Shown here: positions 7,197-49,701 of the stretch, piece by piece | Position numbering within the stretch: position 1 is the stretch's first letter | Layout of the letters: the number at the start of each line of letters is the position of its first letter | Virus record (IMG/VR): IMGVR_UViG_3300028800_000071 | Span: 16,796-80,795 of that record | Origin: a virus | Length of the DNA: 64,000 bases | Direction: 5' to 3' (one strand) | Notes under the pieces: generated by a model | Databases searched by the model: none | What the model was told of the DNA's origin: nothing | What the model saw: the letters and a program-made list of their open reading frames with translations, nothing else | Made by a program: the position numbers and the translations under genes

Positions 7197-7199
7197 TCA

Positions 7200-12547: not shown

Positions 12548-14638
12548 GTGGCCTTTGGAGAGTCGTGGCTGATCTCAGTCATGATGCGATTTACGAGCAA
12601 CGGCTCGCGCATTATGAACGAGCTCGGAAACTCGGCGAGCAAGGCTAATGCTATCCTCGATACGCACACCAAGAAGGTCAACGCCGCGACGGCTGCATGG
12701 GAGCGCTTTAGTGTCGCGAGCGTGAAGGCCGGCACCATGTTTGCCGGCGGCTTCGCGGCCACCGGCGCTGCGGCGATCGTCTACGGTATCAATCAGGCGG
12801 CGAAGCTGGAGCTCGCCATGACGGGCGTGTATGCCGCTACGGGCGCCAACCTGCGGCAGCAGTCGCAACTGCGCAACATGGTGATGCAGATCTCGGGCGT
12901 GACGGCGCAATCGGCTACCACGATCGCCAACGAGCTCTTTATGGTTGGCTCGTCTGGCTTGAACGATCCCAAGCAACTAATGGCGGCGTTCCCGCAGATC
13001 GCCAAAGCCGCCGACGTGCTCTGGCTCTCGACGATGGGCACGCCGAAAGCCGTCGATCCCGTACACGCCTCGATGCAAATGATGAAGCTCTCGCATCTGT
13101 TCGGCGCGTATCAAGGCAAACCGTTAGCCGATATGGTCGATGCTATCGTGCGCCTGCAAATGGTGCAACCCGACGCGCTCGCGAAGGTCGTCACGCAGGC
13201 GAGGTATTTTGTCCCGGCGGCGCTCGGCGCTGGCGTGAGTATCAAGAATCTGCCGCAATCCGATCTCATGGTTCTGATGGCGTCGATGGGCCAGCAGGGC
13301 TTCATGCAAGGCAAAGGCGGTACGGGCCTCGCGGCGTTCATTCAATACATGGATAAGGCGCCGACGTTGACGGCGCATCTGTCGAAGATTCAGCGCGCCT
13401 CAATGATCGATCTCGGGCTATTCGACAGCAGCGGCAGAAATAAGTTCCTCGATAGTCACCAAAACCTAAAGCTCGGTGAGGCGGTCCATTATCTCGGCGA
13501 AAAGTTCGACAGCATGGTCAAAGAGGGTCGGCGCGGCGACTTTATGGCCGATCTCTACGGCGCGTTCTTGCGGCAGGGCGGGGCGTTCACCGCGGCGATG
13601 CTGCTTCCGCAAGTCCGTGCGCAACGCCAACGCAACATTCTCGGCATGGAACGGATCGCGCCGCCTGGCACCGCCGTCGAACGGTTGTGGGACAAGTATA
13701 TGCACACCACGATTGGCGCGTGGAAATACTTCGTCACGAACTTCGAAAACGTGTGGATCTACGGCTTCACGCCGATGCTGCCCACCGTCACCGCCTTCTT
13801 GCGCGGCCTCGGCTACGAGTTCGGGCGCTTCGGCAATACGCTCAAAGATCACCCCGGCATGGCGCAGGCGCTCGCTAATATCCTGATCGGCCTTACGGCG
13901 CTCTCGACCGCGCGCTTCTTGCTCGGTGGCGGCACGTGGCTCTTTACCGTTGCGAGCGGCTTCGGTAAACTCGCGCCGGAACTGAGCCTCACGAGCAAAG
14001 CGCTCATGACGCTAGACAACTTCGTGCTGGCCGGCATGGGCGCGCGCCTTCTCAAGCTCACGAAGTATTGGTTTGATCTCGATACGGCAGCATTAGCGTC
14101 GGCCGCGCCGATCAATAACGTGGCTGGTGCATTGCGCGCGCTCGCGGCAGCTGGCGGCGCGTTCTTGCTCTCACCGCTCGGCCGACTGATCTCAGCCGGC
14201 GGCGGCATCCTCACCGGCGCGTACATTTCGATGCAGCAACATAGCTCGGCGAAAGCCACGTACGATGCGGTTGCACACAAGTACGGCGCGCACTACGCGA
14301 ACACGCTGTTGCACGGCGCACCGGGTTGGAACCTCGATTGGCACGGCCTCCACAAAGGCGGCGGCTCTTACGGCGGTTGGCCGTACAACTATGGTCCGAA
14401 CGATATCCCCGCTGGTGCGCCGCGGCCGCACAACGGGCCGACGCACGTAAGCATGACGAACCATATCGAGATCAAGGTGCCGAAAGGCACGTCCGCCGAG
14501 CAGGCCAAGGAGATCATCAAGATGGCCATGGCCGGTATCCGATCCGAAATGGCGTCTAGCGGAATGCACTTCACCAGCCGCAACGCGCCGCCGGTACTCA
14601 ATCTCGATCTCGCTAGTCCGAGCCTCGGCCTTTCGTAA
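12548..14638 (+). CDS. Tape measure protein
   Basis: Ala/Gly-rich helical protein with a tape-measure core (AKLELAMTGV...GGTGLAAFI); canonical position. Confidence 0.85.
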   Translation: MAFGESWLISVMMRFTSNGSRIMNELGNSASKANAILDTHTKKVNAATAAWERFSVASVKAGTMFAGGFAATGAAAIVYGINQAAKLELAMTGVYAATGANLRQQSQLRNMVMQISGVTAQSATTIANELFMVGSSGLNDPKQLMAAFPQIAKAADVLWLSTMGTPKAVDPVHASMQMMKLSHLFGAYQGKPLADMVDAIVRLQMVQPDALAKVVTQARYFVPAALGAGVSIKNLPQSDLMVLMASMGQQGFMQGKGGTGLAAFIQYMDKAPTLTAHLSKIQRASMIDLGLFDSSGRNKFLDSHQNLKLGEAVHYLGEKFDSMVKEGRRGDFMADLYGAFLRQGGAFTAAMLLPQVRAQRQRNILGMERIAPPGTAVERLWDKYMHTTIGAWKYFVTNFENVWIYGFTPMLPTVTAFLRGLGYEFGRFGNTLKDHPGMAQALANILIGLTALSTARFLLGGGTWLFTVASGFGKLAPELSLTSKALMTLDNFVLAGMGARLLKLTKYWFDLDTAALASAAPINNVAGALRALAAAGGAFLLSPLGRLISAGGGILTGAYISMQQHSSAKATYDAVAHKYGAHYANTLLHGAPGWNLDWHGLHKGGGSYGGWPYNYGPNDIPAGAPRPHNGPTHVSMTNHIEIKVPKGTSAEQAKEIIKMAMAGIRSEMASSGMHFTSRNAPPVLNLDLASPSLGLS

Positions 14639-15564
14639 TGGCAACGCTGCACCGTCCGCAACAGCAGACACCCTCGGGGCCATCGGATAGTCTGACGATC
14701 GGCAGCACCGTTCTGCTCGACGAGGAAACGCCGGACGAACTTATTATCGAGATCAAACGCGTCTGGGCGATCGTCACCTATATCGGCGGCGCTCGCGTCG
14801 CGCAAGATATGGGGCCGTCACCGGCCGATATCACGTGGAAGGGCCGGCTGTTCGCCGGCAACGTCGCCGAACGGTTCGCCGCGCTGCAATCCATGGAGAA
14901 TGCCGCGCAGTTGGTGCCGCTCACGTATCTCGATCAGGCGTTCAACGTCGTCATCAAGACGGTGCGCAAGGTGTACGAGCACCGTTGGCAGGGCGGCTAC
15001 GAGATCACGGTCACGATCATCGAGGACGTTTCCGGCCAATACCAAGTTGGTTCCGGCCCGAGCGCCGAGCAGCAAGTTGATGCGCTGTGGCAGCGCGCGC
15101 TCGATACGCTCGAACAACTCGTGCAAGCCGATCCGTTCGAAACGCCGGGCATACAAACCGAATTCACGATTCTGTTCGCCGCGCTCGAACTCGCCGGGAT
15201 GCTCTCTGAGCTCACCTCGGGATCGTTGCAGAACCTCGTGACGCTCGCCGGTCAAGCCGCCGGCGCTGCGGCTGCGTACATTGCGAATCACGGCGGGGCG
15301 AACGGTAGTTCGCAACTATTCTTGCTCGCCTCCGATCTTGAAACGTCGGCGCTGTTGATCGCCAAGAACCTACAGAGCGGCAACGCGCCAAACGTCGTGG
15401 TGATTCACGGTGCCGATCAGAGCGATCTGTTTGGGCTCGCCGCGCAGGCGTACGGTGACGCCTCGCTGGCCTTTGCGCTCGCGAGCATCAACGGTCTGTC
15501 GTCGCCGCTGCTGGCCTCGACGAAAGTCTATACGCTCACGTTGCCGACAACGCTGGTGGCATGA
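14638..15564 (+). CDS. Tail tube initiator/baseplate protein with LysM-like C-terminus
   Basis: ITWKGRLF; C-terminal LFGLAAQAYGDA...LASINGL; follows the tape measure. Confidence 0.65.
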   Translation: MATLHRPQQQTPSGPSDSLTIGSTVLLDEETPDELIIEIKRVWAIVTYIGGARVAQDMGPSPADITWKGRLFAGNVAERFAALQSMENAAQLVPLTYLDQAFNVVIKTVRKVYEHRWQGGYEITVTIIEDVSGQYQVGSGPSAEQQVDALWQRALDTLEQLVQADPFETPGIQTEFTILFAALELAGMLSELTSGSLQNLVTLAGQAAGAAAAYIANHGGANGSSQLFLLASDLETSALLIAKNLQSGNAPNVVVIHGADQSDLFGLAAQAYGDASLAFALASINGLSSPLLASTKVYTLTLPTTLVA

Positions 15565-17926: not shown

Positions 17927-18385
17927 GTGGCTGGCCTTCCGCAGACGACGAGTAACCCGTTGGCGGCGGTGGAGGTCCTTTTGCCCTACGGCGGCGACTA
18001 TTCACTAACGTCAACCGGCGATCTGCAACTCGTCAAAGACCAACCCGGCAATCCGGCCGCCACGACGCAGCGCATCATCTTCTTGCTGCTCACCAATCCC
18101 GGCGACGATCTCTTTAACCTCGATTACGGCGCCGGCTGCCGCGCGACCGTTGGCCGACCGAACGTTATGGCGAACGTCGATGCCATCCGGCGCACGATCT
18201 CAAGCGCTCTTGCCAACGACCCGTTCGTCGCGGTGTCGCCGGGACCGACGATCGGCATAACGCTTTCGCCGGATAATCAGAGCGCCATTATTGCGATCTC
18301 GTTCTTTTCGGTGATCGGCCAATACGTATCGTTGCCCGATATATCTCTTTCGCCGAATAGCATCCAAATCGGAGCGGCAGCGTGA
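17927..18385 (+). CDS. Baseplate wedge, gp25/gpW-like
   Basis: TGDLQLV...QRIIFLLLTNPGD...DYGAG motif. Confidence 0.8.
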   Translation: MAGLPQTTSNPLAAVEVLLPYGGDYSLTSTGDLQLVKDQPGNPAATTQRIIFLLLTNPGDDLFNLDYGAGCRATVGRPNVMANVDAIRRTISSALANDPFVAVSPGPTIGITLSPDNQSAIIAISFFSVIGQYVSLPDISLSPNSIQIGAAA

Positions 18386-19587
18386 GCATTCAGAAGTACG
18401 GCCTCCAAGATCTCATCCAACTCATGCTGACGGCGTATGCCGCCAAAGCAAAACAGGAAGCCGACGTCGGCACGGGCTCGCAGTTCGGCCCCATGTATCG
18501 CGCGATGGCGCTCGCCGAGCAGCTGCTCCAAAACGAAAACGTTTACGTCGAGACCATCCTGCGCCTCGCGGCGATTCAAGATCCTCTGCCGGACGGCACG
18601 CCAAACCCCGACGTGGATTCATTCGTCAACCCGTTCAACTTCTTTCGCAACGGACCGGGCTATGCGGTCGGCGGCGTCACGGTTTCGATTCCCGCCTCGC
18701 TGCCAACCGATAAGACGATTCCGGTCGGCTATCTGTTTGGTGCCAATGCCGGCCCGACGTACACCGTCGCGGCTAACGGCCCCGGCTACAACTCCGGCGC
18801 GGGCGGTTACGTCATCCCGGCCGGTCAAACCAGCGTCATCGCGTACGTGCAATGCAACGTGTCGGGGTCGCAAGGCAACGCGCTGCCGAACACGATCACG
18901 CAGGTGCTTTCGGGGCCGAACGGATCGCCTCCCGATCCGACGCTCGCGATCAGCAACGCTTTATTGCTCACCGGCGGCGTCGATTCCGAAGTTGGCCAGC
19001 CGCTAAAGACGCGCTTCGCGCAGTATATTGCCGGCGGCGGCGAAGGCACGCCGACGAGCATCATGGCGGCCGTCGGCCAATCAATGACGGGGATCACGTA
19101 CAGTTACGGCGACTTCGTGATGGGCACCGAAGTGTCGAACGTCTGGACCTTTACGCCGAACACCGACGGATGGTTTACGGTCTGCGTCGATATCATGGGC
19201 GCGCCGGGAACGATCACGCAGGACCAACTCAATACGATCGCCGCGCTGATTCTCAACGATTATCGCGCCGGCGGCATCCATTACGCCGTCGCACCGCCGA
19301 CGCCGCTCGACGTGGCTGGTGCCGGTACGGTCGTGCTCGTGCCTGGTGCCGATCCCGGCATCGTCGTGCCGGCGGTCAATGCCGCCTTCATCACGTTCGT
19401 CAACAACCTCGGGCTCGATCCGCTCGGCGGTCCGATGATCTGCTCGATCATGGCGGCGTACATTGCGCTCTCGCAAGTCCCCGGCGTGCTGCGAATCGAC
19501 AATCTCACGCTCAACAGCGGCAACGCCGATATCACCGCCGACTTCGGACAAATCCTGCGGGCCGGCACACCCGGCTTCGCCGCGTAA
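18382..19587 (+). CDS. Baseplate J-like protein
   Basis: VQCNVSGSQGN and LTGGVDSE...LKTRF motifs. Confidence 0.85.
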   Translation: MSIQKYGLQDLIQLMLTAYAAKAKQEADVGTGSQFGPMYRAMALAEQLLQNENVYVETILRLAAIQDPLPDGTPNPDVDSFVNPFNFFRNGPGYAVGGVTVSIPASLPTDKTIPVGYLFGANAGPTYTVAANGPGYNSGAGGYVIPAGQTSVIAYVQCNVSGSQGNALPNTITQVLSGPNGSPPDPTLAISNALLLTGGVDSEVGQPLKTRFAQYIAGGGEGTPTSIMAAVGQSMTGITYSYGDFVMGTEVSNVWTFTPNTDGWFTVCVDIMGAPGTITQDQLNTIAALILNDYRAGGIHYAVAPPTPLDVAGAGTVVLVPGADPGIVVPAVNAAFITFVNNLGLDPLGGPMICSIMAAYIALSQVPGVLRIDNLTLNSGNADITADFGQILRAGTPGFAA

Positions 19588-19599
19588 AGGAGAACCTCG

Positions 19600-22251
19600 A
19601 TGCTGCGATTGCTCAAGGCGATCGGACCGGTCGTCGTGTGCGCCGCATTCTTCGCCATGCCGCACGTCGCACGCGCGAACCAAAGCGCGGCGATTACGTA
19701 CTGCGCACCGCCGGTCATATTCACGCAAGGCCAAACGATCAACGCCGACCCGTTTAATCAAAACTTCGGCACCGCCTCGACGTGCCCGGCACAGTATGGC
19801 GATATGTTTAGCGACGGGCCGTTCTACGACCCGACCGTGCCTTTCAGCGGCTCGTCCTTCAACTTCACGATCCCCGCCAATACGTGGGTTGCGCTCGGAG
19901 CTCGCGTGCCGACCAGCGCGTCGGCGCTCGTGGCACCAGCAAGCGCGACGAGCTATTGGTGGCTCTCGCGCACCGGCCTCTGGACGTGTACGCTCGACAC
20001 CGGCCCGCCGACGAATGCGTGCCCCGGCTTCAATCTTCCCGATACGACCTACGTTTCCGAATACACCATTGCGGCCAACGGCAGCGGCATCACGGCGATT
20101 ACGCTCCCGACGATCGCCGGAATCAAGTTCAACGGCACCGTCGCGCTCACGAGCTTCCCGTCGGGATCTTGCTTGCAAACCACGACAGGCGGCGTCCTTA
20201 CGGCGACCGGCCTGCCGTGCGGCAGCGGCGGCAGCGGCATCGCGAGCGTTACGGGCAGCGGCAATATCAACGCCGTCACGGTCTCGGGCGCCGTCATGGT
20301 AAGCGAAGCGAGCTCGCCGACCTGGACCGGCACGCCGACGACGGCGAGCGCCACGCAGGCCGGTTCGTTCAACTTCGGCAGCGATGGCGCGGCCTCGCTC
20401 GCGCGCACCGGCGCGAGCGCCTTCGCGTTCACGGCGGTCGGCCCGGCAACGCTCTCGGTGCCCGGCGGCGTACTGAGCGGCTCGTCGATCTACGGACCCA
20501 CCTCCGCTTTCCTCAACGGCGGCCTCACAGCGAGCGCCGTGACCGATTCCGGGCTCTCGGTCGGCCAATGCGTCCAGACGACGACAGGCGGCCTTCTGGC
20601 CACCACGGGCGCAGCCTGCGCGGGGCTCGGGAACGTGCTCTCGGTGGCGGCCGGCGGCAGCGGCAACGTGACGTGCTCGCCCACGACCGGCAACGTGATC
20701 TGCGATACGGTCAATAACCCAACGTTTTCGGGCGCCGTCGTGGCCTCGTCGTTCACCGGCTCGGGCGCCGGCCTCACGTCGGGCACGGTGCCGAACGTCG
20801 CGCTCGTAACGCCTGCGGTCACGAGCGTCACCGGGACTTCGCCGATCGCCAGCAGCGGCGGCACGACCCCGGCGATCTCGATCGCGAGCAACCCCGCGCT
20901 CTCAGGCACCGTAACGGGCACGTCGTTCCGCGCCACCGCGGCGATCGTCGCCGGGTCGGCCTCGGCCTTCTTGCCCTCCAATAACGATCTCTCGGCCTCA
21001 GAAACCACGACCTGCGGCGCGATCTACCTCGGCGGCTCGAGCGATAAGGGCAAACTCGACTACGGCTGCACGAGCGGATCGACGTTCACGTTTGGCACGA
21101 ATACGACCGTCGGCGGCACGCTCGCCGCGACGACGCTCAAAGGCACGACCCTTACCTCGGGCAACTGTGTGCAAGCGACGACCGGCGGCGTTCTGATCAC
21201 GACCAGCAGCGCGTGCGGCTCGGCAACCTCCGTGACGTCCGTGGTCGGCACGTCGCCCGTCGGCGTCACGACTTCGGTTGGCGTTGCGACCGTAACGTGT
21301 ACGACGTGCCTCACCGGCTTGACGGCCGGCTCGAATATCTCCGTCGGTAGCGGCACGACGCCATCGGTTGCAGTCGCCTCGTCGCCCACGTTCTCGGGAC
21401 AGATCGGCGCGGACGGCAACGCAGCGCCTGCTGCGGGCATTGCGCTCGGCGCGACGACGACGCCGGCAACGATCACCTCTGGCGTAAGTCTGTCGGCAGC
21501 GTTCGCCTTCAAAGATATCTCGGCGAATTGCGGCACGGGATTCATCGAGTTCGTCAAAGGCGCCTCAACGGTGATCTCGCGCATTGATTGCACCGGCAAC
21601 TATCTCATGGGATCGTCATCGTACGGTACGAACGCCACGATCGCAGGTTCCTTGAGCGCAGGCACGACGATCTCGGGCGGCAACATTCAAGATAGCGGCT
21701 TGGGATCGACCGTCACGCCGATCTGCGGAAACAATGCGGCAGCGATCGCGCCGTGCGGCCAACTGACGCCTATGTTTGCGACGACCGGCAACGCAACGAA
21801 AGCCAGCGGCACGTCGGCCAATACGTTGCAGCAACTCGGCGCGTCGGCCCCGTCGTTGACGCTCGGCACAAGCGCCGGCCCCAACGGGCAATGGCTCGTC
21901 AAGGCGCATCTGCTCATTCGTGGCGCATCGGGTTCGACTAGCGAATATCTGTACGGTTGCCTTTCGAATACGATTAGCGGCGGATCAATCACGCCTCAGC
22001 AGAATTCCGCCGACGAGATCGGCACGACGTGTTGGGCAACGCCGGGAACGGGCTCCGTTCTCGCCGGCACCGTCGGCTTCGGTCAAACGTCGTCGGCCGG
22101 CAATCAGCAATACGGGTTAGACGCGACCGCCGAGGCGATCTTCCTCGCACCGAATGGAGCAACGATCACGATCTATCCGTGGATCGGCGCATCGACCAAC
22201 GCGAGCGTGAACGTGAGTGGAGCGCTCTCGGTCGAGGCTGATCCCTACTAA
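19600..22251 (+). CDS. Cys/Gly/Ser/Thr-rich fibre-like protein with N-terminal signal-peptide-like segment
   Basis: MLRLLKAIGPVVVCAAFFAMPHVARA-NQ; three CxQxTTGGxLxxTxxxC repeats; VTSVxGTSP repeats. Confidence 0.7.
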   Translation: MLRLLKAIGPVVVCAAFFAMPHVARANQSAAITYCAPPVIFTQGQTINADPFNQNFGTASTCPAQYGDMFSDGPFYDPTVPFSGSSFNFTIPANTWVALGARVPTSASALVAPASATSYWWLSRTGLWTCTLDTGPPTNACPGFNLPDTTYVSEYTIAANGSGITAITLPTIAGIKFNGTVALTSFPSGSCLQTTTGGVLTATGLPCGSGGSGIASVTGSGNINAVTVSGAVMVSEASSPTWTGTPTTASATQAGSFNFGSDGAASLARTGASAFAFTAVGPATLSVPGGVLSGSSIYGPTSAFLNGGLTASAVTDSGLSVGQCVQTTTGGLLATTGAACAGLGNVLSVAAGGSGNVTCSPTTGNVICDTVNNPTFSGAVVASSFTGSGAGLTSGTVPNVALVTPAVTSVTGTSPIASSGGTTPAISIASNPALSGTVTGTSFRATAAIVAGSASAFLPSNNDLSASETTTCGAIYLGGSSDKGKLDYGCTSGSTFTFGTNTTVGGTLAATTLKGTTLTSGNCVQATTGGVLITTSSACGSATSVTSVVGTSPVGVTTSVGVATVTCTTCLTGLTAGSNISVGSGTTPSVAVASSPTFSGQIGADGNAAPAAGIALGATTTPATITSGVSLSAAFAFKDISANCGTGFIEFVKGASTVISRIDCTGNYLMGSSSYGTNATIAGSLSAGTTISGGNIQDSGLGSTVTPICGNNAAAIAPCGQLTPMFATTGNATKASGTSANTLQQLGASAPSLTLGTSAGPNGQWLVKAHLLIRGASGSTSEYLYGCLSNTISGGSITPQQNSADEIGTTCWATPGTGSVLAGTVGFGQTSSAGNQQYGLDATAEAIFLAPNGATITIYPWIGASTNASVNVSGALSVEADPY

Positions 22252-23411
22252 TGACGATCGGAACGTCGCAACTTGGCGGCGGCACCTTTGGTGGTGGCGG
22301 TATCTTTGGCGGCACCGCTGCGCAACTGCTCGCATTCCTGGACGAAACGGGCTCCAATCCGTTACCGGCCGGGATCTACGTGCAAATATACGCCGGGTCG
22401 ATCGACGGGCTGCTCGGTGCGCCGCCGATCGCCGCTGGCTGGACGCAGCCAGGCGGGCTTTGCAATGTTCCCGTACAGCCCGGCAATCTGATCACGTGCG
22501 TCTTTTCATTGTCGTCGCAAGCGCCCCCGAATCCCGTAGAGATTACGCCCGACGGGAACGGTCCGGTTTACACCGTGACGGTGGCACCCTACCGATCTCC
22601 GTCGCTGTCGGACAGCGGATACGCGGCGCTGCTTACTTCGAAACTGCCCAGAGGGTGGTTTAGCGGCGCGGCATTAGCCGATGAACCAGGCGACGGTTCC
22701 CCGAGCGGCATTGCGTACGCGATCGCCTACGCGATCGGTGCGGCGCTTGCGGCGCTTGATCAAGGACAGACGCAGGTCAACCTTGGTCGAGCGCGTCTTG
22801 GTCCGAGCGTCGGCGCCGATATCGACAGTTGGTCGACGGATATGGTCGGCCCGACGTTCGGCCGATATCCTCAAGAATCTGATGCGCTGTTTATCTCGCG
22901 CAATATGCTCATGGTTTCGCGGCCGCGCTGCTCAATCAACGCGTTGCAAAAGTTCGTGACGCAGTTCTATGCGTCGATCTTGGCAGGTTGGAACGTAACG
23001 GGCTCCGAAGCGCTCGGCTTCGATACGGCGGGCGGCTTCGAAGTATCGGGCGCATTCAATAATCCGCCGGCCCCATCCGTTCCTAAAAATCCGCCGCCCG
23101 TAACGGTGTGGGACGGCATGACGCAACCGGCTCTGGCTGCGGCGCTCGGCGTCACGCCGTTGCAGTTCGTCATTATGGTCGGCCTATTCAGTACGAGTCT
23201 CGTCGAACAACTCGGCTTCAACGTCGCTGGTGCCCTCGGTGGCGGCCCGCACGGCGCGTCGCCCGGCTCGGGCGGATTCAGTAATGAAGTCACAAACGAC
23301 ACGCTGCCAAGCCCGACGCGCCAGGCGCCAGACCCGCGACTCGGCACGATGATCAATCTCATCACCAAAGGCACCGGCACCGTACCCCTATATCTCATCG
23401 GTCAACTCTGA
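22251..23411 (+). CDS. Baseplate wedge gpI-like protein
   Basis: LLTSKLPRGWF...IDSWSTDMVG...RYPQESDALFISR resembles gpI-type wedge proteins; position near gpJ. Confidence 0.6.
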   Translation: MTIGTSQLGGGTFGGGGIFGGTAAQLLAFLDETGSNPLPAGIYVQIYAGSIDGLLGAPPIAAGWTQPGGLCNVPVQPGNLITCVFSLSSQAPPNPVEITPDGNGPVYTVTVAPYRSPSLSDSGYAALLTSKLPRGWFSGAALADEPGDGSPSGIAYAIAYAIGAALAALDQGQTQVNLGRARLGPSVGADIDSWSTDMVGPTFGRYPQESDALFISRNMLMVSRPRCSINALQKFVTQFYASILAGWNVTGSEALGFDTAGGFEVSGAFNNPPAPSVPKNPPPVTVWDGMTQPALAAALGVTPLQFVIMVGLFSTSLVEQLGFNVAGALGGGPHGASPGSGGFSNEVTNDTLPSPTRQAPDPRLGTMINLITKGTGTVPLYLIGQL

Positions 23412-23421
23412 GGAGCTCAAC

Positions 23422-24765
23422 GTGAAGAAGTTTGCATCTGCGATCGCCGCGCTCGCGCTCGCGCTCTCGCCGTTCGTGGCGCAAGCGACGCAAGTCACCG
23501 TGCAGCCTGCGCCGACGGCGCGCGTCATGGTGTACGCCGGCCAAAACCCCGACACCAACGAAACCAACCTGATCCCGCGCTTTCAGCGGCTTGCCGACGG
23601 CACGATGCTGCGCGATATTCTCTCGACGCTCGGCACGTCTGGCGCGTGGTCGAACATTGCGATTCGGCCAGGCTCGGGCCTCAACGTCACGATCAACCCG
23701 TATCCGAATACGTCGCAACTCGGCGCGGTCTATCAGATCGGTCAGAACGACGTGACGGCGCTGCCGCCGCCGCCAGGTCAATCTCCGAATCAGATCCCGG
23801 CAGATTCGACCAATATCATCATTCAGGCAACGCAGAACGTGCAGAGCAATCCGCTCGGCCCGTTAAGCGCGCCTAGTGGCGCGGGCAACGGCATCTATTA
23901 CATGGTCGAGGCGCAACTGAGTTCGATCGACACACAGAACCAATCCATGCTCTTTGTGTCGTCGAGCGGCATCACGAACTATCAGAACGTCAATACGCAA
24001 CGCCAAGACATCATCACCTATAAGCTAAACCCGGGCGGGCCAGGCACGGCCGATTGCAGCACGACGTTCCCGACGCCGCCTGCGGTGGATAGCGGTTGGA
24101 TTGAGATCGGCTTGGTCTGCATCCCGCACGCCTTGACGCAGATCACCACGGCCAATATCGCCATGTTCCTCGGGACGAACTTCAACGGTTCGTCCTTTGC
24201 GCAATTGAACTTCGGCGGCGCCTACGTAACGGGCGGTTGCCAAGGTACGGCGACCAACTGCGGCCCTTCGACGCTCTCCACGTCGCAGAACAGCGGGTGC
24301 GATCTCAATAACGAGCTCGGGTTCGTGATCAATAACAACGCGAATACGAATAACGGGAACCACGTGCTCGTGGCCGATCTGGCCGGCGATCTGGGCGTCT
24401 GCGGCAGCGAGCTCCATATCTTCAATCAGAACTCGAACTCGACGGCCGCCAAGATCATCGTCAATACGTCCGTCGATAAAGGCACGGCCACGGACGAAAC
24501 GCTGTATCCGGCCAATAACACCGCGACCTTGGTGACGAATTCCAACTGCGCCAACGCCACGATCTGCCAAAGCGCAGCGGAAAAGGATATCTGCGCTCAG
24601 TCCGGCGCGGCGTCAACGGCGATGATTACGCCGAATGGCGATTCCGCGATGGCGGTGACGAGCGCGCCCACGTCGGGGACCGGCGTACGTGTAGAGTTTT
24701 ACAACGTGAGCGGTAGCTCGATCTCGAGCCCGCACACGTTTAACTTTACCTATACGTGCTTCTGA
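23422..24765 (+). CDS. Tail-fibre-position protein with Sec signal peptide
   Basis: MKKFASAIAALALALSPFVAQA- leader. The body resembles baseplate-proximal fibre domains (RVMVYAGQ...PAVDSGW...TQITTANI). Confidence 0.65.
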   Translation: MKKFASAIAALALALSPFVAQATQVTVQPAPTARVMVYAGQNPDTNETNLIPRFQRLADGTMLRDILSTLGTSGAWSNIAIRPGSGLNVTINPYPNTSQLGAVYQIGQNDVTALPPPPGQSPNQIPADSTNIIIQATQNVQSNPLGPLSAPSGAGNGIYYMVEAQLSSIDTQNQSMLFVSSSGITNYQNVNTQRQDIITYKLNPGGPGTADCSTTFPTPPAVDSGWIEIGLVCIPHALTQITTANIAMFLGTNFNGSSFAQLNFGGAYVTGGCQGTATNCGPSTLSTSQNSGCDLNNELGFVINNNANTNNGNHVLVADLAGDLGVCGSELHIFNQNSNSTAAKIIVNTSVDKGTATDETLYPANNTATLVTNSNCANATICQSAAEKDICAQSGAASTAMITPNGDSAMAVTSAPTSGTGVRVEFYNVSGSSISSPHTFNFTYTCF

Positions 24766-25396: not shown

Positions 25397-25717
25397 GTGC
25401 CATCTTGGGAACGCGAGATCTCGGACTTGTGGGCGGCGTTATTCGTCCCCGCGAGCGCCGTCATCGGCACGATCGGCGTCATTCTGCTCGCCCTCACCCG
25501 CTTCAAGGACAAGCGGATGGAAGGGGCGCTCGAAGCGAGCACGACCTGGCGCGAGCTCGCACAAAGCCGCGAGGCCACCAATGTCGATCTCGAACGCAAG
25601 GCCGTGTCGAGAGATCGGTACATTCAGCGGCTCGAACGGCAAAACTCATTCCTTTGGGATCAACTTGCGCCCGAGAAGCGAGAGGAGGTTTCTCGCAAAT
25701 GGAACTTACGCGAATAG
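25397..25717 (+). CDS. Membrane-anchored coiled-coil protein (lysis module; holin/spanin-like)
   Basis: N-terminal TM helix then coiled coil; upstream of the endolysins. Confidence 0.5.
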   Translation: MPSWEREISDLWAALFVPASAVIGTIGVILLALTRFKDKRMEGALEASTTWRELAQSREATNVDLERKAVSRDRYIQRLERQNSFLWDQLAPEKREEVSRKWNLRE

Positions 25718-25724
25718 GTGCCGT

Positions 25725-26126
25725 ATGATTAACACGCTTCCGAACACCCTGTGGGCTCTCTCTGTTTGTAGCTTCATTGCGATCTATGCGATCGTGCTCG
25801 GCTTTGCGTGGGGGAAAATCAGCCGGCGGTTTTTGTTCCGCCGATTCGCCGATCACTATACGCAGTTCGACGTGACGTGCGTCGGCATCGGAACATTACT
25901 CACCCTCATTCTTTTTGAGTGGGGCGTTCGCGCGCCGTTCGTATTTTTCGTTTTCGGTCACGTGACGATCGGCGGGTGGTGGGTTCAAATCTGGATCGTC
26001 TGCTTCGCTGCCGGCACAATGTTTGGCTACAGTAAACGCAAGCGCGAGGACAACAACCTCCTCAACGACGGCGCCATTACGTTCTGCCCCCATCCTAACT
26101 GTCCAGCACTAAAAGGAGATCACTAG
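25725..26126 (+). CDS. Multi-TM membrane protein (holin candidate)
   Basis: About three hydrophobic segments and a charged C-terminus; lysis module. Confidence 0.5.
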   Translation: MINTLPNTLWALSVCSFIAIYAIVLGFAWGKISRRFLFRRFADHYTQFDVTCVGIGTLLTLILFEWGVRAPFVFFVFGHVTIGGWWVQIWIVCFAAGTMFGYSKRKREDNNLLNDGAITFCPHPNCPALKGDH

Positions 26127-26506
26127 TGAAGCAAATCCTCGCCGTTGCGATGCTCATGCTCGCGGCGGCACCCGTGTCTGCGGCAACGCCGCCACCGAAT
26201 GCCGCGCCGGCGAGCGCGCCAATCCAAAATGCACCGAACGGTGTCAAGCCAAGTCCGCAGCCGTTATGGGCGCTCGTGAAAACCGTGCAAGACAACGACG
26301 CCGCCGTAACGCGCGACTACAATCTTTTTGTCATGCACTATCAGACGTTCGGCGCCTCGGTCTATGCACCGTGGTGCGTCAACGCGGGCGGCGTCCTCAC
26401 CGTGAAGCTCGCCAAAGCGTGGGCTGCATGGCCGGCAACCGTGTGGTGCCATAAGGACGATCCGAAAGGGCCAGGGCGTTCCGCCACGGCGCCGGTGGTC
26501 AAATGA
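26126..26506 (+). CDS. Secreted protein
   Basis: Signal peptide MKQILAVAMLMLAAAPVSA; AAGGAG RBS. Confidence 0.65.
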   Translation: MKQILAVAMLMLAAAPVSAATPPPNAAPASAPIQNAPNGVKPSPQPLWALVKTVQDNDAAVTRDYNLFVMHYQTFGASVYAPWCVNAGGVLTVKLAKAWAAWPATVWCHKDDPKGPGRSATAPVVK

Positions 26507-27283: not shown

Positions 27284-28096
27284 ATGGACAATCACGTCGT
27301 CGATATCTGCCTCGCGATCTTCGCTTTGTCGATGGTCGCGCTTGCCGTTATTCCGCACCCCGAAGGTACGCCGATCCCATCGGCGCCGCTCACGAAGCCG
27401 CTCTCAAAGACGGCCGCGGTCGTGCTCAAATACAATAACGAGCATCCATTCTTCAGTAAGGCGCCCGTGTGGACCGAACCGGCGCCCGGCGTAACGATTC
27501 ACAAGATCCCGCCGAGCACGGCGCAAGAAGAAGCCGACGTCGCCGAAGCCGCGAGCGTGCGCGAGAAGTATCCGCTCACGATGATCTTCGCTGCGCTCGG
27601 CGTCGAGAGCGTGCTCGATCCGCTTTGCGAAAACCACAACGCCGCGCCGGGCGAAAGCAACGAAGGCAATAAGTTCGGGCCGGCCGGTTGGGATATGGGG
27701 CTTGGACAGTTCAAACTCGGAATTCTGGCCAAGGCGCTCGGCATCACGCTCGCGCAGGCACAGGAGCTCGCGTTCACGATCAAATGGGCGATCGACTATC
27801 ACGTCGCCGTGATGAAGAAGGAAGTCGCCTGGGCCAATACGGTCATTGCGCAAAACCAAGGCAACTCGAACGTCGATTATCGCTTTCGCGATCCGTATCT
27901 ACTCGCGACGTGCTCGTACAACTACGGCCGCAACGGCGTGCTCGAACAGTATTATTACAAAGGCACGTTTCCCGACGGCGGCAAGAACCCCGATGGTACT
28001 CCGCGCAAGAATCACGGCGCGTCGGTCATGAGTGACGAAGCCTACTTTGCCAAGCAACTCGGCGTAACGTCGATCTTCGCCTATCTCAAGGCGTAG
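27284..28096 (+). CDS. Lytic transglycosylase with N-terminal TM/SAR anchor
   Basis: SLT motifs: VES (catalytic Glu), GLGQF, SYNYG. Confidence 0.75.
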   Translation: MDNHVVDICLAIFALSMVALAVIPHPEGTPIPSAPLTKPLSKTAAVVLKYNNEHPFFSKAPVWTEPAPGVTIHKIPPSTAQEEADVAEAASVREKYPLTMIFAALGVESVLDPLCENHNAAPGESNEGNKFGPAGWDMGLGQFKLGILAKALGITLAQAQELAFTIKWAIDYHVAVMKKEVAWANTVIAQNQGNSNVDYRFRDPYLLATCSYNYGRNGVLEQYYYKGTFPDGGKNPDGTPRKNHGASVMSDEAYFAKQLGVTSIFAYLKA

Positions 28097-28108: not shown

Positions 28109-28264
28109 ATGGATTCCGATTCTGGCGGTGGCGCAAAAGGGTCCGTCGCCGCTTCAGACAGCCTCGATGCCGTCGTGATTCACAAAGACGGCAGCACGAC
28201 CCAAACTCAGCTAACGGGCGTTAAAAAAATCATCGCCTGGTTCAAAGGATGGTTCACGTCATGA
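28109..28264 (+). CDS. Small hypothetical protein (not in ORF track)
   Basis: AGGAGG RBS, ATG at 28109, stop overlaps the next ATG; 51 aa ending KKIIAWFKGWFTS. Confidence 0.55.
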   Translation: MDSDSGGGAKGSVAASDSLDAVVIHKDGSTTQTQLTGVKKIIAWFKGWFTS

Positions 28265-29196
28265 AAAAACTGCTCGGTGCAGTTCTGCTCACGGCGCTCG
28301 CGCTCGCAGGCTGCTCTCACGGAACAACGCATCACCCGGGCCTCGCGCCGGGAAAGATGCGTGCGCACAGTTCGCTCGTTCACAAGGTTGACCTTAAGGC
28401 CGGCAAGCCGCAAGAGCACGCCGTAATCGATCTGCGCAAACACCAGCCGACGGTATTCCTCGGTAGCGGCGTCAACTTCGGCCATATCATGGCCTATCAC
28501 TATCGTCACCATCGTCTGATCGGCGTTCACGATCTCGGGTTCGGGACCGTGACGAACGTCGGCGTAATGGCCATGGCCAACGACTTTGCGTGGGCCGGCC
28601 CGTCGGGTGCGCCGATCAATACGCTCGCGCTCTGCAAGTTCATGGCGACAGGTACGGGCACAACCGCCTCGGCCTCAACGGATATCGCGTTGCAGACCGC
28701 CGACGGTGTTGCCTCAGTCACCGGCACGCAGTCGCTCGTGAGCGCGGCCAACTCCCAAGCCTATAAGGTCGTCGGAACCCAAAACTATACGGGCACCGAG
28801 GCCGTCACGGAATGGGGACTCTTTGCGAACGGCACGCTTTCGGCGAGCACAGGCACGCCGTTTACCGCCGGATCGGCGACGAGCGGAACCGTAACAGGCA
28901 CACCGCTTACGGCATCGTCGACGACGGCTCAAGGCGAGCAACAGTTCATCTTCCAAGATACGACCAAATCGCCGAAGATCTACGGCTTGGTGACGAGCAA
29001 CACCACGTCGGTCGTGACCGTTCCGGCGTGGTACAAATCCACCGACGGCACCGCTGCCGGCACAACGCCGGCCAACGCCGATGCGTTGACGATTCTCCCG
29101 GTGATGCTCGACCATATCGTCTTTTCGGCGATCAACGTCATCAATGGCGACTCGATTCAGTTTACGTTCACGTTGACGTTGCCTTCGGGCTCGTAA
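28261..29196 (+). CDS. Lipoprotein-signal-bearing tail-fibre/collar-like protein
   Basis: MKKLLGAVLLTALALAG-C lipobox. The body (MATGTGTTA...TEWGLF...FSAINVINGDSIQFTFTL) resembles phage tail-associated proteins. Confidence 0.65.
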   Translation: MKKLLGAVLLTALALAGCSHGTTHHPGLAPGKMRAHSSLVHKVDLKAGKPQEHAVIDLRKHQPTVFLGSGVNFGHIMAYHYRHHRLIGVHDLGFGTVTNVGVMAMANDFAWAGPSGAPINTLALCKFMATGTGTTASASTDIALQTADGVASVTGTQSLVSAANSQAYKVVGTQNYTGTEAVTEWGLFANGTLSASTGTPFTAGSATSGTVTGTPLTASSTTAQGEQQFIFQDTTKSPKIYGLVTSNTTSVVTVPAWYKSTDGTAAGTTPANADALTILPVMLDHIVFSAINVINGDSIQFTFTLTLPSGS

Positions 29197-29220: not shown

Positions 29221-32200
29221 ATGGCGATCTCGTTCGTCCAAGCCGCTCAAGGCGCGGGGTTCGGCGTCGTTCTCGGTGCGGCTCCCGTGAAAGGCAACCT
29301 CTTACTCGCCGTTGCGGTCAATAACGGCTCGACGCCGACAGCCAATACGGGCTGGACGAGCATCGACACCCTCAACCTCACGCAAGACGGCATTTCGCTC
29401 TATAAGATCGCTGGTGCGGCCGAACTCTCGACGCAGACGCCGATCGCCGGCACGTCGAGCAACGTTTCGGTCTACGAGTTCCACGCCGATCGCGGCTTTG
29501 CGGCCAATCCGGTCGATGACCATTCCGTGCGCCAAGGCGCACCGGCTACGCCGCCGACGTGCGTTTCTAACGGCGTAAACCCGACCAAGCCGATCAACGG
29601 AATGCTGGCGGTGTTTTACTCTACGTCGAGCGCCGATACGGCGCCGACGGCTGTTTCGGGCATGACCGTGCAACTCACGTTGAGCGGCGGCGCGACCGGC
29701 AACGGCGTCGGCTGTTATCAGATCGGCGTCAACGGCGAACACGTCACAAAAACAGCGACGTGGACCGGCTCAACGAGCGCATCATCGTGCGCCTTTATCA
29801 TCGTCTTTTACGAGCAGACGGAAGTCACGCTCGTGCAAGCCGCGACGGCCGTCGGCACCGGCGTCACGTTCGGATCTGCGCCGACGCAAGGCAATCTGCT
29901 CGTCGCCGTCTGCTTCAATAGCGGCACGCCGGCGCTCGGCACAGGCTGGACGAATATCGACAATCAGGCGAGTTCGCCCAATAGTCGATCTATGTATAAG
30001 ATCGCCGGGGCCGGCGAATCGACGACACAAAGTCCGACAAGTACGGCGACGAGTACGCTCATGGTCGCCGAGTTCAACGCCGTGAGCGGACCATTTACGG
30101 CAGCGAATCTCGACGTACATGGCGTGACGCGCGTTGCGACGGCAAATCCACCGAGCGTCACGTCCGGTGCTCTTACGCCATCGAAGGTCAACGACTTCGC
30201 CATCGTTGTCGCGTGCGATGCCGGTACGGCCGACGCTGCGCCGACGGCGATCACCGGCATGGTCACGCTCGTTGATATGCCAGGCACCGGCGGCAACGTC
30301 GGTATCGGCTTTGCGGCGTGGACGGTCAATACGGGCACGGGTTCGTTTACGAAAACCGTCACGTGGGGTAGCGGCACAACGTCGGCGAGCGCCGTTCACG
30401 TCATGATCTTTACGGTGCCGGGCTATACTTCAACGCCGTCGGGATCTGTGACGGGCGCGGGGGCCGCCAATCGCGCCGATAAGGCGGTGCGCACCGGCAG
30501 CATCACGGGAGCCAGCGCGCTCTCGCGGGCGATCGCTCATGGTCTGACGGCCTCGATCACGGCCGTGAGCTCCGCGCTCCGATTCGTCGCAAAGATATTG
30601 CCCGGCGCGTCGATGACGCCGACCGGCACGGCGACAAAGCAGGCGCAACTGCCGGTTGCAGGCAGCGTCACGGGTGCAAGCTCGTTCGTGCGCGCAACCT
30701 TTGCACAACTCGCTGGAAGCGAAACGCCGGCCGGAACGTTCGTGCGTTTCATTCAGCGCGTGCTCACGACGGGCTCGATCACGGGTGCCGGCGCCGCTTC
30801 AAAGCAGACGCAGGTGCCGGTGGCCGGGTCCGTCACGGGCTCGACTTCGATGCTGCACGCCATCGGCGCGCTACTCAGCGGCAGCGTCACGGGCGCGACC
30901 GGATTCGTTCGCTCGACGTTCCGTAAACTCACCGGCAGCGAGACCCCCGCCGGCGCGGCTACGCGTGCGATCGCGCGCGCCTTTACTGCGGCGAGCATCA
31001 CGGCAAGCTCGGCTCTGGCCACCGGCAAAGCCTTCGTGCGATCCTTGACGAGTTCGATCACGGGCACGACCGGCTTCGTTCGCTCGACGTTCCGCAAGCT
31101 CACCGGCAGCGAAACGCCAGCCGGCGCGGCTGCGCGTGCGATCGCGCGCGCGTTCACGGCAGCGAGCATTACAGCCACGTCGGCGCTGGCCACCAGCAAG
31201 TCTTTCCTCCGATCATTCACGGGTTCGATCACGGGCTCGAGTTCGATGCTACACGCCATCGGTGCGCTTCTCAGCGGCAGCGTCACGGGCACGAGCTCGA
31301 TGAACCGCTCGATCGGCGCGAAGCTCACCGGAAGCATCACGGATGCCGGGACGTTCATCCGATCGACCGTCGCGAAACTTACGGGCAGCGAAACTCCCGC
31401 CGGTGTCGTCGCGCGCGCGATCGCCCGCACCTTCGCCGCGGCGAGCATCACGGCGAGCTCGGCTCTGGCCACCGGCAAGGCGTTCGTTCGATCGTTCACC
31501 GGCTCGATCACCCCGGCCGGCTCGATCAATCGGTTCACGACGGCGCTGATCTCGGGCAGCGAGGCCGCTACGTCGTCGCTCAACCGCTTCACGGCGCGTC
31601 TTGAGGCCGGGAGCATTACCGGGGCCGGCACGGCTCACAAATCGACCGGAACGGTCGAAAGCGGCAGCATCACGGATGCCGGGGCGATCGGCAAGCAGAC
31701 GAAGGTGCCCGTGGCGGGCAGCGTCACGAGCTCGGGAACGCTCAGGCGCTCGATCTTCGCCTTGCTCGCGGCCAGCATCACGGCGGCCAGCGCGATCCGG
31801 CGCGCGTCGACCAGGGCGCTCGTCGCCCAGGTTACGCCGCAGGGCGGGCTCGCCCGGGCGATCGGCGCGGCGCTCGCGAGTGCCAGCATTACGGCACAGT
31901 CGCTGCTTACGTCCAATCGTGCCATCATCCGCAACTTCACGGCGTCGATCGCGCCGAGCGGGACGATCGGCAAAGCCGTCAGCGCGCTACTGAGCGGCAA
32001 CGTGGCGCCGGCGACACACCTCCTTCGCTCGACGGTCGTACAGTTCGGCGGCCAGATCACCGCAACGGCCGGCATCGTCCGTACGACGGTGCTCAATATC
32101 GCCGGCAGCATCGCGGCCGCTGGCACCATTGCTCGTGGCCGTATCAAGAACTTCACCGGCTCAATCACCGGGCAAGGCGTGCTCGCCGACCGCAAGGCGA

Positions 32201-32505
32201 TCAACGTCATCTTCAACGCCGTGCTTGCGCCGCAGGGCACGATACGTCGGTCGATCCGCAAGGCGTTCGCGGCCGTCATTGCGGCCGTCGGGTCGCTTCG
32301 CAATCTGTTCTATCACGCGCCGCCGGCCATCGTGCTCGATATTGCGATCATCGCGCCGACGGAGATCAGCGCCTCGATTCTCGCGCCGACGGTGATCGGC
32401 GCACCGATTCTCGCGCCGACGACAATCAGCGCACCGATTCTCGCGCCGACGATGCTTGAGCTCGATATTCCCGGCGCCATCATTCTGTCGGTTTCGGGGG
32501 ACTAA
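29221..32505 (+). CDS. Large repetitive fibre/adhesin-like structural protein
   Basis: Two tandem ~200-aa beta domains (VQAA...GNLL-AV), then dozens of ~20-aa GSIT-repeat units and ILAPT repeats. Confidence 0.7.
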   Translation: MAISFVQAAQGAGFGVVLGAAPVKGNLLLAVAVNNGSTPTANTGWTSIDTLNLTQDGISLYKIAGAAELSTQTPIAGTSSNVSVYEFHADRGFAANPVDDHSVRQGAPATPPTCVSNGVNPTKPINGMLAVFYSTSSADTAPTAVSGMTVQLTLSGGATGNGVGCYQIGVNGEHVTKTATWTGSTSASSCAFIIVFYEQTEVTLVQAATAVGTGVTFGSAPTQGNLLVAVCFNSGTPALGTGWTNIDNQASSPNSRSMYKIAGAGESTTQSPTSTATSTLMVAEFNAVSGPFTAANLDVHGVTRVATANPPSVTSGALTPSKVNDFAIVVACDAGTADAAPTAITGMVTLVDMPGTGGNVGIGFAAWTVNTGTGSFTKTVTWGSGTTSASAVHVMIFTVPGYTSTPSGSVTGAGAANRADKAVRTGSITGASALSRAIAHGLTASITAVSSALRFVAKILPGASMTPTGTATKQAQLPVAGSVTGASSFVRATFAQLAGSETPAGTFVRFIQRVLTTGSITGAGAASKQTQVPVAGSVTGSTSMLHAIGALLSGSVTGATGFVRSTFRKLTGSETPAGAATRAIARAFTAASITASSALATGKAFVRSLTSSITGTTGFVRSTFRKLTGSETPAGAAARAIARAFTAASITATSALATSKSFLRSFTGSITGSSSMLHAIGALLSGSVTGTSSMNRSIGAKLTGSITDAGTFIRSTVAKLTGSETPAGVVARAIARTFAAASITASSALATGKAFVRSFTGSITPAGSINRFTTALISGSEAATSSLNRFTARLEAGSITGAGTAHKSTGTVESGSITDAGAIGKQTKVPVAGSVTSSGTLRRSIFALLAASITAASAIRRASTRALVAQVTPQGGLARAIGAALASASITAQSLLTSNRAIIRNFTASIAPSGTIGKAVSALLSGNVAPATHLLRSTVVQFGGQITATAGIVRTTVLNIAGSIAAAGTIARGRIKNFTGSITGQGVLADRKAINVIFNAVLAPQGTIRRSIRKAFAAVIAAVGSLRNLFYHAPPAIVLDIAIIAPTEISASILAPTVIGAPILAPTTISAPILAPTMLELDIPGAIILSVSGD

Positions 32506-33772: not shown

Positions 33773-34345
33773 ATGACAACCGCAAAGCGGACCCTCAACG
33801 GTCTGCGCATCGAAACCAAGAACCTTGCCGATCTCAAGGCGGCGCCCTACAACCCGCGCACGATCTCGCAAGAAGCGCTCAACGGGCTTGCGAAAAGCCT
33901 CGAACGATTCGGCATCGTCGAACCGATCATCTTCAACGAACGTACCGGGCACGTCGTCGGCGGCCACCAGCGGCTCAAGGTCCTGGAGCATCAAAAGAAG
34001 CAGCAGACCGACGTGATCGTCGTCGATCTTGAGCTCAAGGAAGAAAAGGCGCTCAACGTCGCGCTCAACAGCGAGCATATTCAGGGCGAGTTCGACGACG
34101 AAAAACTCGAGGCGCTGCTCAAAGAGATTCACGTGAGCGACAAAGAGCTATTCGACGGCCTGCGCTTCGAGGAGTTCGGCTTCAACATTGAAGCGCCGAA
34201 TATCGACGACGTGGTAGGCACGCCGAACATGGCCTTCGCCTCGAAGTTCGAGTGTATCGTCACGTGCAAAGACGAAGCCGAGCAGCGCGATCTCTACGAA
34301 CGCCTGCAAGCCGAGGGCTACAAGGTCAAGGTTCTGCAACTGTGA
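33773..34345 (+). CDS. ParB/Srx N-terminal domain protein
   Basis: LKAAPYNPR...SLERFGIVEPIIFN...VVGGHQRLK...EKALNVALN. Confidence 0.88.
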   Translation: MTTAKRTLNGLRIETKNLADLKAAPYNPRTISQEALNGLAKSLERFGIVEPIIFNERTGHVVGGHQRLKVLEHQKKQQTDVIVVDLELKEEKALNVALNSEHIQGEFDDEKLEALLKEIHVSDKELFDGLRFEEFGFNIEAPNIDDVVGTPNMAFASKFECIVTCKDEAEQRDLYERLQAEGYKVKVLQL

Positions 34346-49320: not shown

Positions 49321-49701
49321 ATGAAAAACCTGAAAGCCTTAGTATTGCTATTGGCGTTGCCGCTGCTCGCGGTGACGCAACCCATGGAACATACGGACGA
49401 CGCGCATTGCCATGCGGCCACGCAGGCCGACGATAACCCGGCGATCGTCGTGTGGTGTACGTCTGCGGCCGAAGATCACGTAACGGATGCCGAAGGCGAA
49501 AGCGGCGATTCGCGCGCGATCGATCTCGTGATGGGCGCGATGCAATTGCTCATTACGGCGCTGGCGCACCGCGAAATGGGCGACAGCAACTATCAGTATC
49601 TCGTTGACAACGCCCGCCAGGCATTACAGGAAGCCGCGCAGGCGGCGCGATCGAACCGCGTGATCTTGCTCGTCCAACACGCCCAAGAATCGTTGCCTTG
49701 A
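49321..49701 (+). CDS. Secreted/membrane hypothetical protein
   Basis: Signal-like MKNLKALVLLLALPLLA; GTAGGAGAA RBS. Confidence 0.6.
   Translation: MKNLKALVLLLALPLLAVTQPMEHTDDAHCHAATQADDNPAIVVWCTSAAEDHVTDAEGESGDSRAIDLVMGAMQLLITALAHREMGDSNYQYLVDNARQALQEAAQAARSNRVILLVQHAQESLP

Follow-up and report, generated by a model that had tools for sequence, protein, structure and literature searches.

Putative receptor-binding tail proteins with predicted Sec signal peptides and paired cysteines in the tail operon of an uncultured contractile-tailed phage

Assembly of tailed phages is described in textbooks as an entirely cytoplasmic process, and tail fibres are assumed to need no export. The exported proteins known to be encoded beside phage tail genes are signal-peptide morons such as lambda Lom and the Cor/Llp-type exclusion lipoproteins, which are small, unrelated to fibres, and often transcribed from their own promoter. 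A preprint states that the P22 tailspike has no signal peptide, needing no export, and in the literature that we searched we found no report of signal peptides on the virion fibres or receptor-binding proteins (RBPs) of tailed phages. Here, we describe two genes, P0001 and P0002, in a 64,000-nucleotide stretch of DNA (the window, to which all coordinates refer unless a locus is named), which comprises bases 16796-80795 of the 80.8-kb IMG/VR virus record IMGVR_UViG_3300028800_000071 (estimated completeness, 83%; G+C content of the window, ~61%). The phage is uncultured, of soil type, and contractile-tailed, and both genes lie in the fibre position of its tail operon, as the initial annotation had proposed; both products are predicted to be fibre or receptor-binding proteins of the tail module. 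The presence of Sec-type leaders and of a disulfide signature in both is well supported by sequence, and P0001 and P0002, together with more than 100 related fibre families, probably fold outside the cytoplasm.

The closest relatives among cultured phages are Raharianne gp49 (YP_010078173; Ralstonia) and phiKX1_790 (BCZ76084; Komagataeibacter), whose shoulder domain is homologous to that of P0002 (hmmsearch E values of 3.5e-45 and 8.6e-22, respectively; also found by tblastn). The P0002-type N-terminal domain (N-domain) occurs in the cultured Ralstonia phages Raharianne, Hyacinthe, and Albius and in the Komagataeibacter phages phiKX1/2. Like P0002, the fibres of these P2/Mu-like myophages are encoded downstream of the baseplate gene J and of a phrog_26379 protein and have a variable distal receptor-binding part; in phiKX1 the fibre gene directly follows the genes for the spike, W, J, and the post-J protein, and in Raharianne gp48 lies between the post-J protein and the fibre. 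The Raharianne/phiKX1-type fibres, however, start with M-(T)-D-R, without a leader, and have few cysteines, which are unpaired, whereas P0002 has a 22-aa signal peptide and 10 cysteines. The closest published case of a secreted fibre is that of the mosaic adhesive trimers (MATs) of Bdellovibrio bacteriovorus, a likeness that we compared by architecture only: MAT fibres are secreted and carry a ~130-aa domain after the signal peptide (Caulton et al. 2024, PMC10769870), and relatives of P0002 carry PF13884. Yet MATs are chromosomal proteins that a predatory bacterium displays on its own surface, whereas the P0001 and P0002 genes occupy the fibre position inside a phage tail operon. A possible structural likeness extends to the shoulder-neck-head RBPs of siphophages and to TssK of the type VI secretion system (PDB 4l92, 2wzp, and 5y0e), whose shoulders align with residues ~40-260 of the P0002 model (Z scores of 8.2, 6.5, and 7.0); as in siphophage RBPs, the model places a small beta-sandwich head at the C-terminus. 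These proteins have no detectable sequence similarity to P0002 and are cytoplasmic and leaderless. The exclusion morons resemble P0001 and P0002 in being exported phage proteins encoded beside tail-fibre genes, but we rejected a Cor/Llp/Lom-type assignment, as P0001 and P0002 are 883 and 447 aa long, fibre-homologous, devoid of a promoter-like site, and coupled to J and the post-J gene.

P0001 (19600..22251, +) and P0002 (23422..24765, +) are present as open reading frames (ORFs) with the signal-peptide starts and good ribosome-binding sites (RBSs) originally claimed for them, namely, AGGAG 7 nt 5' of the P0001 ATG (19588..19592, +) and GAGGAG 6 nt 5' of the P0002 GTG (23410..23415, +), both read from the sequence. 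The predicted Sec-type signal peptide of P0001 is 26 aa long (19600..19677, +) and combines R3/K6 with a 14-residue hydrophobic core and A-R-A at positions -3/-1; the N-terminus reads MLRLLKAIGPVVVCAAFFAMPHVARA followed by NQS, with the predicted cut between A26 and N27. That of P0002 is 22 aa long (23422..23487, +), with K2/K3, a 13-residue hydrophobic core, and A-Q-A; here the N-terminus reads VKKFASAIAALALALSPFVAQA followed by TQV, with the predicted cut between A22 and T23. Leader assignment was based on rules and on conservation. The best 10-residue Kyte-Doolittle mean is 2.8 for P0001 and 2.41 for P0002 and reaches at least 2.0 in all of the 110 leader-bearing relatives introduced below, 107 of which have at least one K/R within their first 8 residues, and the complete grammar for Sec and signal peptidase I (SPase I) is found in 107-110 of the 110. 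A rule-based scan of all ORFs in the 80.8-kb genome returned the P0001 and P0002 leaders and those of only a few other real genes. Two other types of export signal were considered and rejected: a lipoprotein signal, given that neither protein has a lipobox Cys at +1 (ARA is followed by N and AQA by T), and a Tat signal, given that the twin-arginine motif (S/T-R-R-x-F-L-K) is absent from P0001, P0002, and most relatives, RR occurring only in some homologs (P0018 and P0019).

The leaders are conserved as a grammar. All 11 close homologs of P0002 (35-56% identity to P0002) carry a leader, the sequence of which is unconserved, with conservation starting in the mature part; likewise, seven or more P0001 homologs keep a leader of the same grammar and unconserved sequence in front of a conserved mature part, with AHA, AKA, ASA, or ARA cut sites at the equivalent position. 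The P0001 homologs P0017-P0021, P0024, and P0026 and the one at 5383-8670 of the viral contig L002 all have both a leader and an even number of mature cysteines. L002 moreover shows the order J, P0001-like, P0003-like, P0002-like (P0003 being the post-J gene); its starts are likewise coupled to an RBS, and it is again the P0001-like and P0002-like genes that have leaders. The leaders might still be start-codon artefacts with the true starts farther downstream, since ORF finders favour long ORFs and an in-frame GTG/ATG exists at residue 19 of P0002 and at residue 20 of P0001. We regard this as highly improbable: these internal candidates are without an RBS and lie inside or beside the hydrophobic core, whereas each proposed start is preceded by a strong RBS at 6-7 nt and by the end of the upstream gene at just 10-12 nt. 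The same layout is seen in L002, and it would have to be by chance that over 100 diverged homologs have retained an open frame with the features of a signal peptide at this place.

When 1.84 billion representative proteins were searched with a profile of the P0002 family, 831 relatives were recovered, of which 189 had E <= 1e-10; the 831 share their first ~250 residues and diverge beyond. The leader state was classified for 136 representatives among the best matches of these 831. In 110 of them a leader precedes the motif [DN]-R-[VI]-x-x-Y-x-G-Q-N-P, while the remaining 26 are leaderless and start directly with M-D/N-R-x-I-x-Y; the C-termini of the leaderless members match PHROG tail-fibre families, PF21882 (Gp53-like_C), and PF13884. 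For 103 of the 110 leader-bearing members, only 1-3 residues separate the predicted AxA cut from the conserved Arg, and the initiator Met of the leaderless members lies at the same point. Because the cut coincides with the leaderless start, cleavage would restore the N-terminus that ordinary fibres have. The leader state requires 3 changes when mapped on a tree of the N-domain, compared with a mean of 24 in label shuffles, and the pattern consists of one deep split and two isolated leaderless rows, one of them without any cysteine. So few changes suggest that the leader is old and has been stably kept, and the tree points to a near-single origin.

The second signature lies in the cysteines. 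Where the initial annotation counted ~22 and ~10 cysteines, often paired, we find 23 in P0001, of which one is in the leader and 22 are in the mature part, and 10 in P0002. The 22 mature cysteines of P0001 form 11 consecutive near pairs with spacings of 3-27 residues. The three C-x15-C motifs that had been quoted for P0001 are exact; they lie at residues 191-207, 324-340, and 523-539 and correspond to three Cys-closed loops, CLQTTTGGVLTATGLPC (20170..20220, +), CVQTTTGGLLATTGAAC (20569..20619, +), and CVQATTGGVLITTSSAC (21166..21216, +). This loop module recurs in the P0001 family and in 8 leader-bearing fibres of the P0002 family, but in none of the leaderless members. Cysteine makes up 2.6% of P0001 and 2.2% of P0002, compared with 0.67% pooled over 24 other late-region proteins, and 6 of the 10 cysteines of P0002 (Cys 293, 327, 376, 382, 391, and 446) are invariant among close homologs. 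An even number of cysteines in the predicted mature part is found in 99 of the 110 leader-bearing members (binomial p of 7e-19), versus 12 of the 26 leaderless ones, and the cysteine content across this N-domain family is 1.81% with a leader and 0.85% without (p of 4e-9), although the sequences are related, so that these p-values overstate their independence. Counts between 2 and 28 are seen with distal domains of very different kinds, and in the P0001 family all members are even once the leader is removed. In exported proteins, a bias toward even numbers of cysteines is accepted as a sign that disulfides form (PMC2823432).

The domain organization of P0002 is that of an RBP, with the leader followed by shoulder, neck, and head. 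An AlphaFold2 (AF2) model computed from a 140-sequence alignment has a mean predicted local distance difference test score (pLDDT) of 82.9, with values of >90 for most of residues 31-250; an 11-sequence alignment gave a pLDDT of 40.7 and was not used. The shoulder or baseplate-docking domain (residues 31-255; 23512..24186, +) is the part homologous to the leaderless fibres of cultured phages. Its six best matches in the PDB are all shoulders of phage RBPs, fibres, or TssK, among them the RBP of lactococcal phage 1358 (Z score of 8.2), the tail fibre of Haloferax tailed virus 1 (HFTV1; 7.2), TssK (7.0), the p2 RBP (6.5), and Mtd (6.2), a range of 6.2-8.2 that may reflect only a common arrangement. 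The Cys-rich C-terminal head (residues ~340-447; 24439..24762, +) contains the invariant Cys 376, 382, 391, and 446, with Cys 293 and 327 just upstream, and the C-terminal ~90 residues align with the tips of tailspikes and fibres (Z scores of 4.5-6.1). In BFVD, every significant match of P0002 is a tailed-phage protein, and a Foldseek search of the model against the PDB gave no match at E <= 0.001. At the sequence level, neither P0001 nor P0002 matched any of 50,697 phage records by tblastn or any Pfam or PHROG family at E <= 0.01, and neither family matched the PDB; P2 gpH and T4-type fibre repeats (e.g., PF03406 and PF07484) were rejected for both proteins at the same threshold. With Z scores this moderate, the modelled fold supports the sequence and synteny evidence rather than providing proof. 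Taken together, family homology, synteny, and fold identify P0002, by prediction, as a bona fide shoulder-neck-head receptor-binding tail fibre of the phage in the canonical fibre position.

Another observation was that the P0002 head domain (residues ~320-442) also occurs in tandem pairs of host-encoded proteins of 360-460 aa in four Eremiobacterota genomes (loci L028-L030 and L023; genomes G395, G261, G302, and G190). Judged by eye, these host proteins seem to have Sec or lipoprotein leaders. This distribution suggests an extracytoplasmic module that is exchanged between host surface proteins and phage fibres.

P0001 appears to be a second, longer exported fibre, an assignment that we make with less confidence than that of P0002. 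Its repeats resemble fibre repeats, and it shares the Cys-loop module with leader-bearing RBPs; its neighbours in the ESM Atlas are all viral and fibre-flavoured, but with scores of <0.85 they are leads only. The family is small: the N-domain has only a handful of relatives, no leaderless relative of it was found, and a P0001 homolog between J and the post-J gene is seen only in the window and in L002. Homologs with ~56% identity to P0001 also occur in two near-identical elements of a Candidatus Eremiobacteraeota metagenome-assembled genome (MAG) (OY970335.1, 8409-31786 and 1006088-1028799; L003 and L004). There, the homolog is leader-bearing and 1452 or 1451 aa long, with genes for a 470-aa and a 162-aa protein upstream and tape-measure-like and gpD-like genes downstream, and the 10-kb flanks yielded no homolog of J or W. 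L003 and L004 represent another type of element, which shares the exported fibre.

In the window and in L002, L007, L008, L009, L011, L017, and L018, the tail gene order is tape-measure protein, hub, gpD-like protein, spike, W, J, then the post-J protein and then the fibre. Upstream of J in the window, the contractile-tail module comprises a tape-measure-like protein (12548-14638), a gpU/hub-like protein (14638-15564), two more conserved baseplate genes, and a gp25/W-like protein (17927-18385). The initial annotation described P0001 and P0002 as interleaved with baseplate J and I. The first of these neighbours is borne out: J is a 401-aa baseplate J-like wedge protein without a leader and with 3 cysteines (18382..19587, +; PF04865, E value of 2.5e-12; phrog_6, E value of 3.7e-24). 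The second holds by position only. P0003, the 386-aa leaderless post-J baseplate protein at the gpI position (22251..23411, +), has no Pfam or PHROG match of its own, and a sequence search against the PDB gave chance-level matches only (E > 0.2). Its homologs come after J in L002, L007, L008, L009, L011, L017, and L018, and phrog_26379 is matched by the homolog in L007 and by the post-J proteins of phages Raharianne and phiKX1; through its homologs, P0003 thus groups by sequence with phrog_26379, the family of the post-J gene in cultured phages. The post-J proteins matched no Pfam family, and membership of this "gpI" in the P2 gpI family was not confirmed.

The P0001 ATG follows the J stop by 12 nt, the P0001 stop and the P0003 start overlap by 1 nt, and the P0002 GTG follows the P0003 stop by 10 nt; between J and the end of P0002 we found no promoter-like site and no terminator-like site above chance. 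J, P0001, P0003, and P0002 therefore appear to form one coupled late operon. According to our related-loci and genome searches, from which all locus contexts are taken, the order J, post-J protein, leader-bearing fibre is kept in the viral loci L002, L007, L008, L009, and L011 and in the prophages L017 and L018. Some of these loci have an extra gene between the post-J protein and the leader-bearing fibre: a leaderless protein of 477-533 aa is encoded there in L011 (6801-8234), L018 (1457-2911), L017 (10664-12265), and L008 (7477-8982). In three of the four loci it is a distant paralog of the shoulder domain, whereas the window phage is without one. This leaderless protein could serve as a stub or adaptor, made in the cytoplasm, that receives the exported fibres.

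The homologs in the Eremiobacteraeota MAG are one of the links to a host phylum, in which relatives occur in prophages, and leader-bearing shoulder fibres in a J and post-J context were present in 3 of 301-401 sampled Eremiobacterota genomes; a first profile scan of genome contigs for relatives had given no match. From these sequences, we infer that the host of the window phage belongs to the Eremiobacterota. Only one member of the phylum has been cultured, and its envelope consists of an inner membrane, thin peptidoglycan, and an outer membrane with lipopolysaccharide (PMC9758169); genomic evidence also indicates a diderm envelope in Eremiobacterota (bioRxiv 10.1101/534180). As for disulfide-forming machinery, VKOR scored above the Pfam cut-off in all four Eremiobacterota carrier genomes and DSBA in one of the four; Thioredoxin_4 was not found in these four genomes, and DSBA is not encoded by the phage. 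The export and oxidative folding outside the cytoplasm that had been proposed in the initial annotation hence gain support from conserved leaders, even cysteine numbers, and a diderm, VKOR-encoding host phylum; the further idea of a surface receptor blocker fits less well than that of a virion fibre, as discussed below.

On this basis, we infer that P0001 and P0002 are exported, cut by signal peptidase I, and folded under oxidising conditions in the periplasm. In the model that we propose, the late tail operon would yield both proteins as precursors with a cleavable Sec signal peptide, which would cross into the host periplasm in the unfolded state and be processed by SPase I; in the periplasm they would fold and trimerise, with disulfides introduced by host DsbA/VKOR-type machinery. 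Tails and baseplates (J, P0003, and the rest, none of which has a leader) would meanwhile be built in the cytoplasm as usual, and the shoulder domain would dock the fibres once the holin/endolysin step breaches the inner membrane and mixes the compartments, or shortly after lysis. Signal peptidase would thus create the docking-competent N-terminus, and host oxidases would lock the fibres with disulfides. Docking after export is suggested by the retained baseplate-docking domain and by the lack of a leaderless shoulder-domain fibre in the genome. It is favoured because conservation in the P0002 family is highest in the docking domain, while the distal part varies; because the cut coincides with the leaderless N-terminus; because fibre position and operon coupling are kept; and because no other shoulder-domain protein was found in this genome record (83% complete). 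Sec-exported, disulfide-bonded fibres that dock onto cytoplasmically built tails after the membrane has been breached are, in our tentative judgement, the best explanation of the data. Still more tentatively, we extend it to a large and ancient clade of phages with contractile tails (no fewer than 110 protein clusters at <50% identity, some infecting Eremiobacterota) that would make their RBPs in the periplasm and complete their virions at lysis.

Several points weigh against docking after export. The subclade of P0002 itself is an exception, with a predicted cut that is 10-13 residues away from the conserved Arg and not 1-3. Docking after lysis would face rapid dilution of the fibres. In L011, L017, and L018, the actual fibre of the virion might be the leaderless distant shoulder paralog encoded just upstream of the exported one, and the window phage itself encodes a leaderless 1094-aa repeat protein (29221-32505) that is possibly a fibre, in a genome record that is just 83% complete. 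The relatedness of the sequences behind the cysteine statistics belongs here too. The same leader and cysteine evidence for export would also be expected of disulfide-bonded proteins that are not virion parts at all and that serve as receptor maskers or binders (for superinfection exclusion or for shielding progeny from debris) or as adhesins. Such a role has parallels in the signal-peptide morons that adjoin tail genes (lambda lom and cor-type lipoproteins). It also has one in Bdellovibrio, which secretes trimers resembling tail fibres, where a conserved domain directly follows the signal peptide (PMC10769870), and it would fit the presence of the P0002 head domain in host-encoded exported proteins and lipoproteins, as well as the leaderless paralog upstream in some related phages. 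We nevertheless consider this main rival less probable than docking after export. The shoulder domain is the most conserved part and is common to the virion fibres of cultured phages, with a distal part that varies as in true RBPs; the gene is translationally coupled in a late operon, in the fibre position and without a promoter of its own; this genome offers no other shoulder-domain fibre; and a periplasmic protein would have no evident route to receptors on the outer surface.

Alternatively, the leader may not export anything, in which case the fibre would join the baseplate in the cytoplasm and the hydrophobic N-terminus would be a docking element, a membrane tether, or a propeptide for a phage protease. 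Tailed-phage assembly is cytoplasmic in all studied cases, which speaks for this reading. The full Sec/SPase I grammar in 107-110 of 110 members makes it improbable, however, as do the lack of an LAIFD-type motif in the leader, the even-number bias and the doubled cysteine content, which are seen only in leader-bearing members and which a reducing cytoplasm does not explain; and because the leaderless relatives start exactly at the predicted cut, the leader is not likely to be part of the docking domain. The present case contributes a leaderless sister group in cultured myophages with the predicted cut at their start codon, the parity statistic, the apparent near-single origin of the leader, and the link to Eremiobacterota. 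If these fibres do mature in the periplasm, the building of a phage particle can extend over two compartments, with lysis setting its timing, and cleavage by signal peptidase would become a licensing step for baseplate docking. Disulfide-stabilised RBPs would then form a class of their own, robust in the environment and attractive for engineering, and annotation pipelines that take a signal peptide to mean that a protein is not structural would give wrong labels to the proteins that determine host range in many soil phages. The leaderless and leader-bearing sister groups, which share the docking domain, would provide a clean test system.

Several further genes of the window are worth recording. 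Downstream of P0002, a multi-transmembrane protein (25581-26126) is a candidate for the holin, and a protein of 270 aa whose N-terminal helix resembles a signal anchor (27284-28096) is possibly an endolysin of the signal-arrest-release (SAR) type, neither of them with a Pfam or PHROG match. In an apparent lysis cassette, a 126-aa protein (26126-26506) has a clear Sec leader, VKQILAVAMLMLAAAPVSA followed by A, and two mature cysteines, and is conserved in L002 (13728-14090); it could be part of a spanin or a periplasmic helper of the exported fibres. The 1094-aa repeat protein has a duplicated N-domain and many ~20-aa GS(I/V)TG repeats and is directly preceded by a 315-aa lipoprotein with the lipobox LAGC (28249-29196). 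In L002, the homolog of this lipoprotein begins with a Sec-type leader, and a small lipoprotein is encoded separately, ahead of the 770-aa homolog of the repeat protein. Neither the lipoprotein nor the repeat protein of the window had family matches, and the two may form another appendage system. Outside the late region, a 126-aa ORF (49321-49701) has a Sec-type leader, MKNLKALVLLLALPLLAVTQP. Just past the structural region, a 437-aa protein (34252-35565) combines ABC-ATPase-like and GNAT acetyltransferase-like regions and matches phrog_11143 (E value of 2.4e-81).

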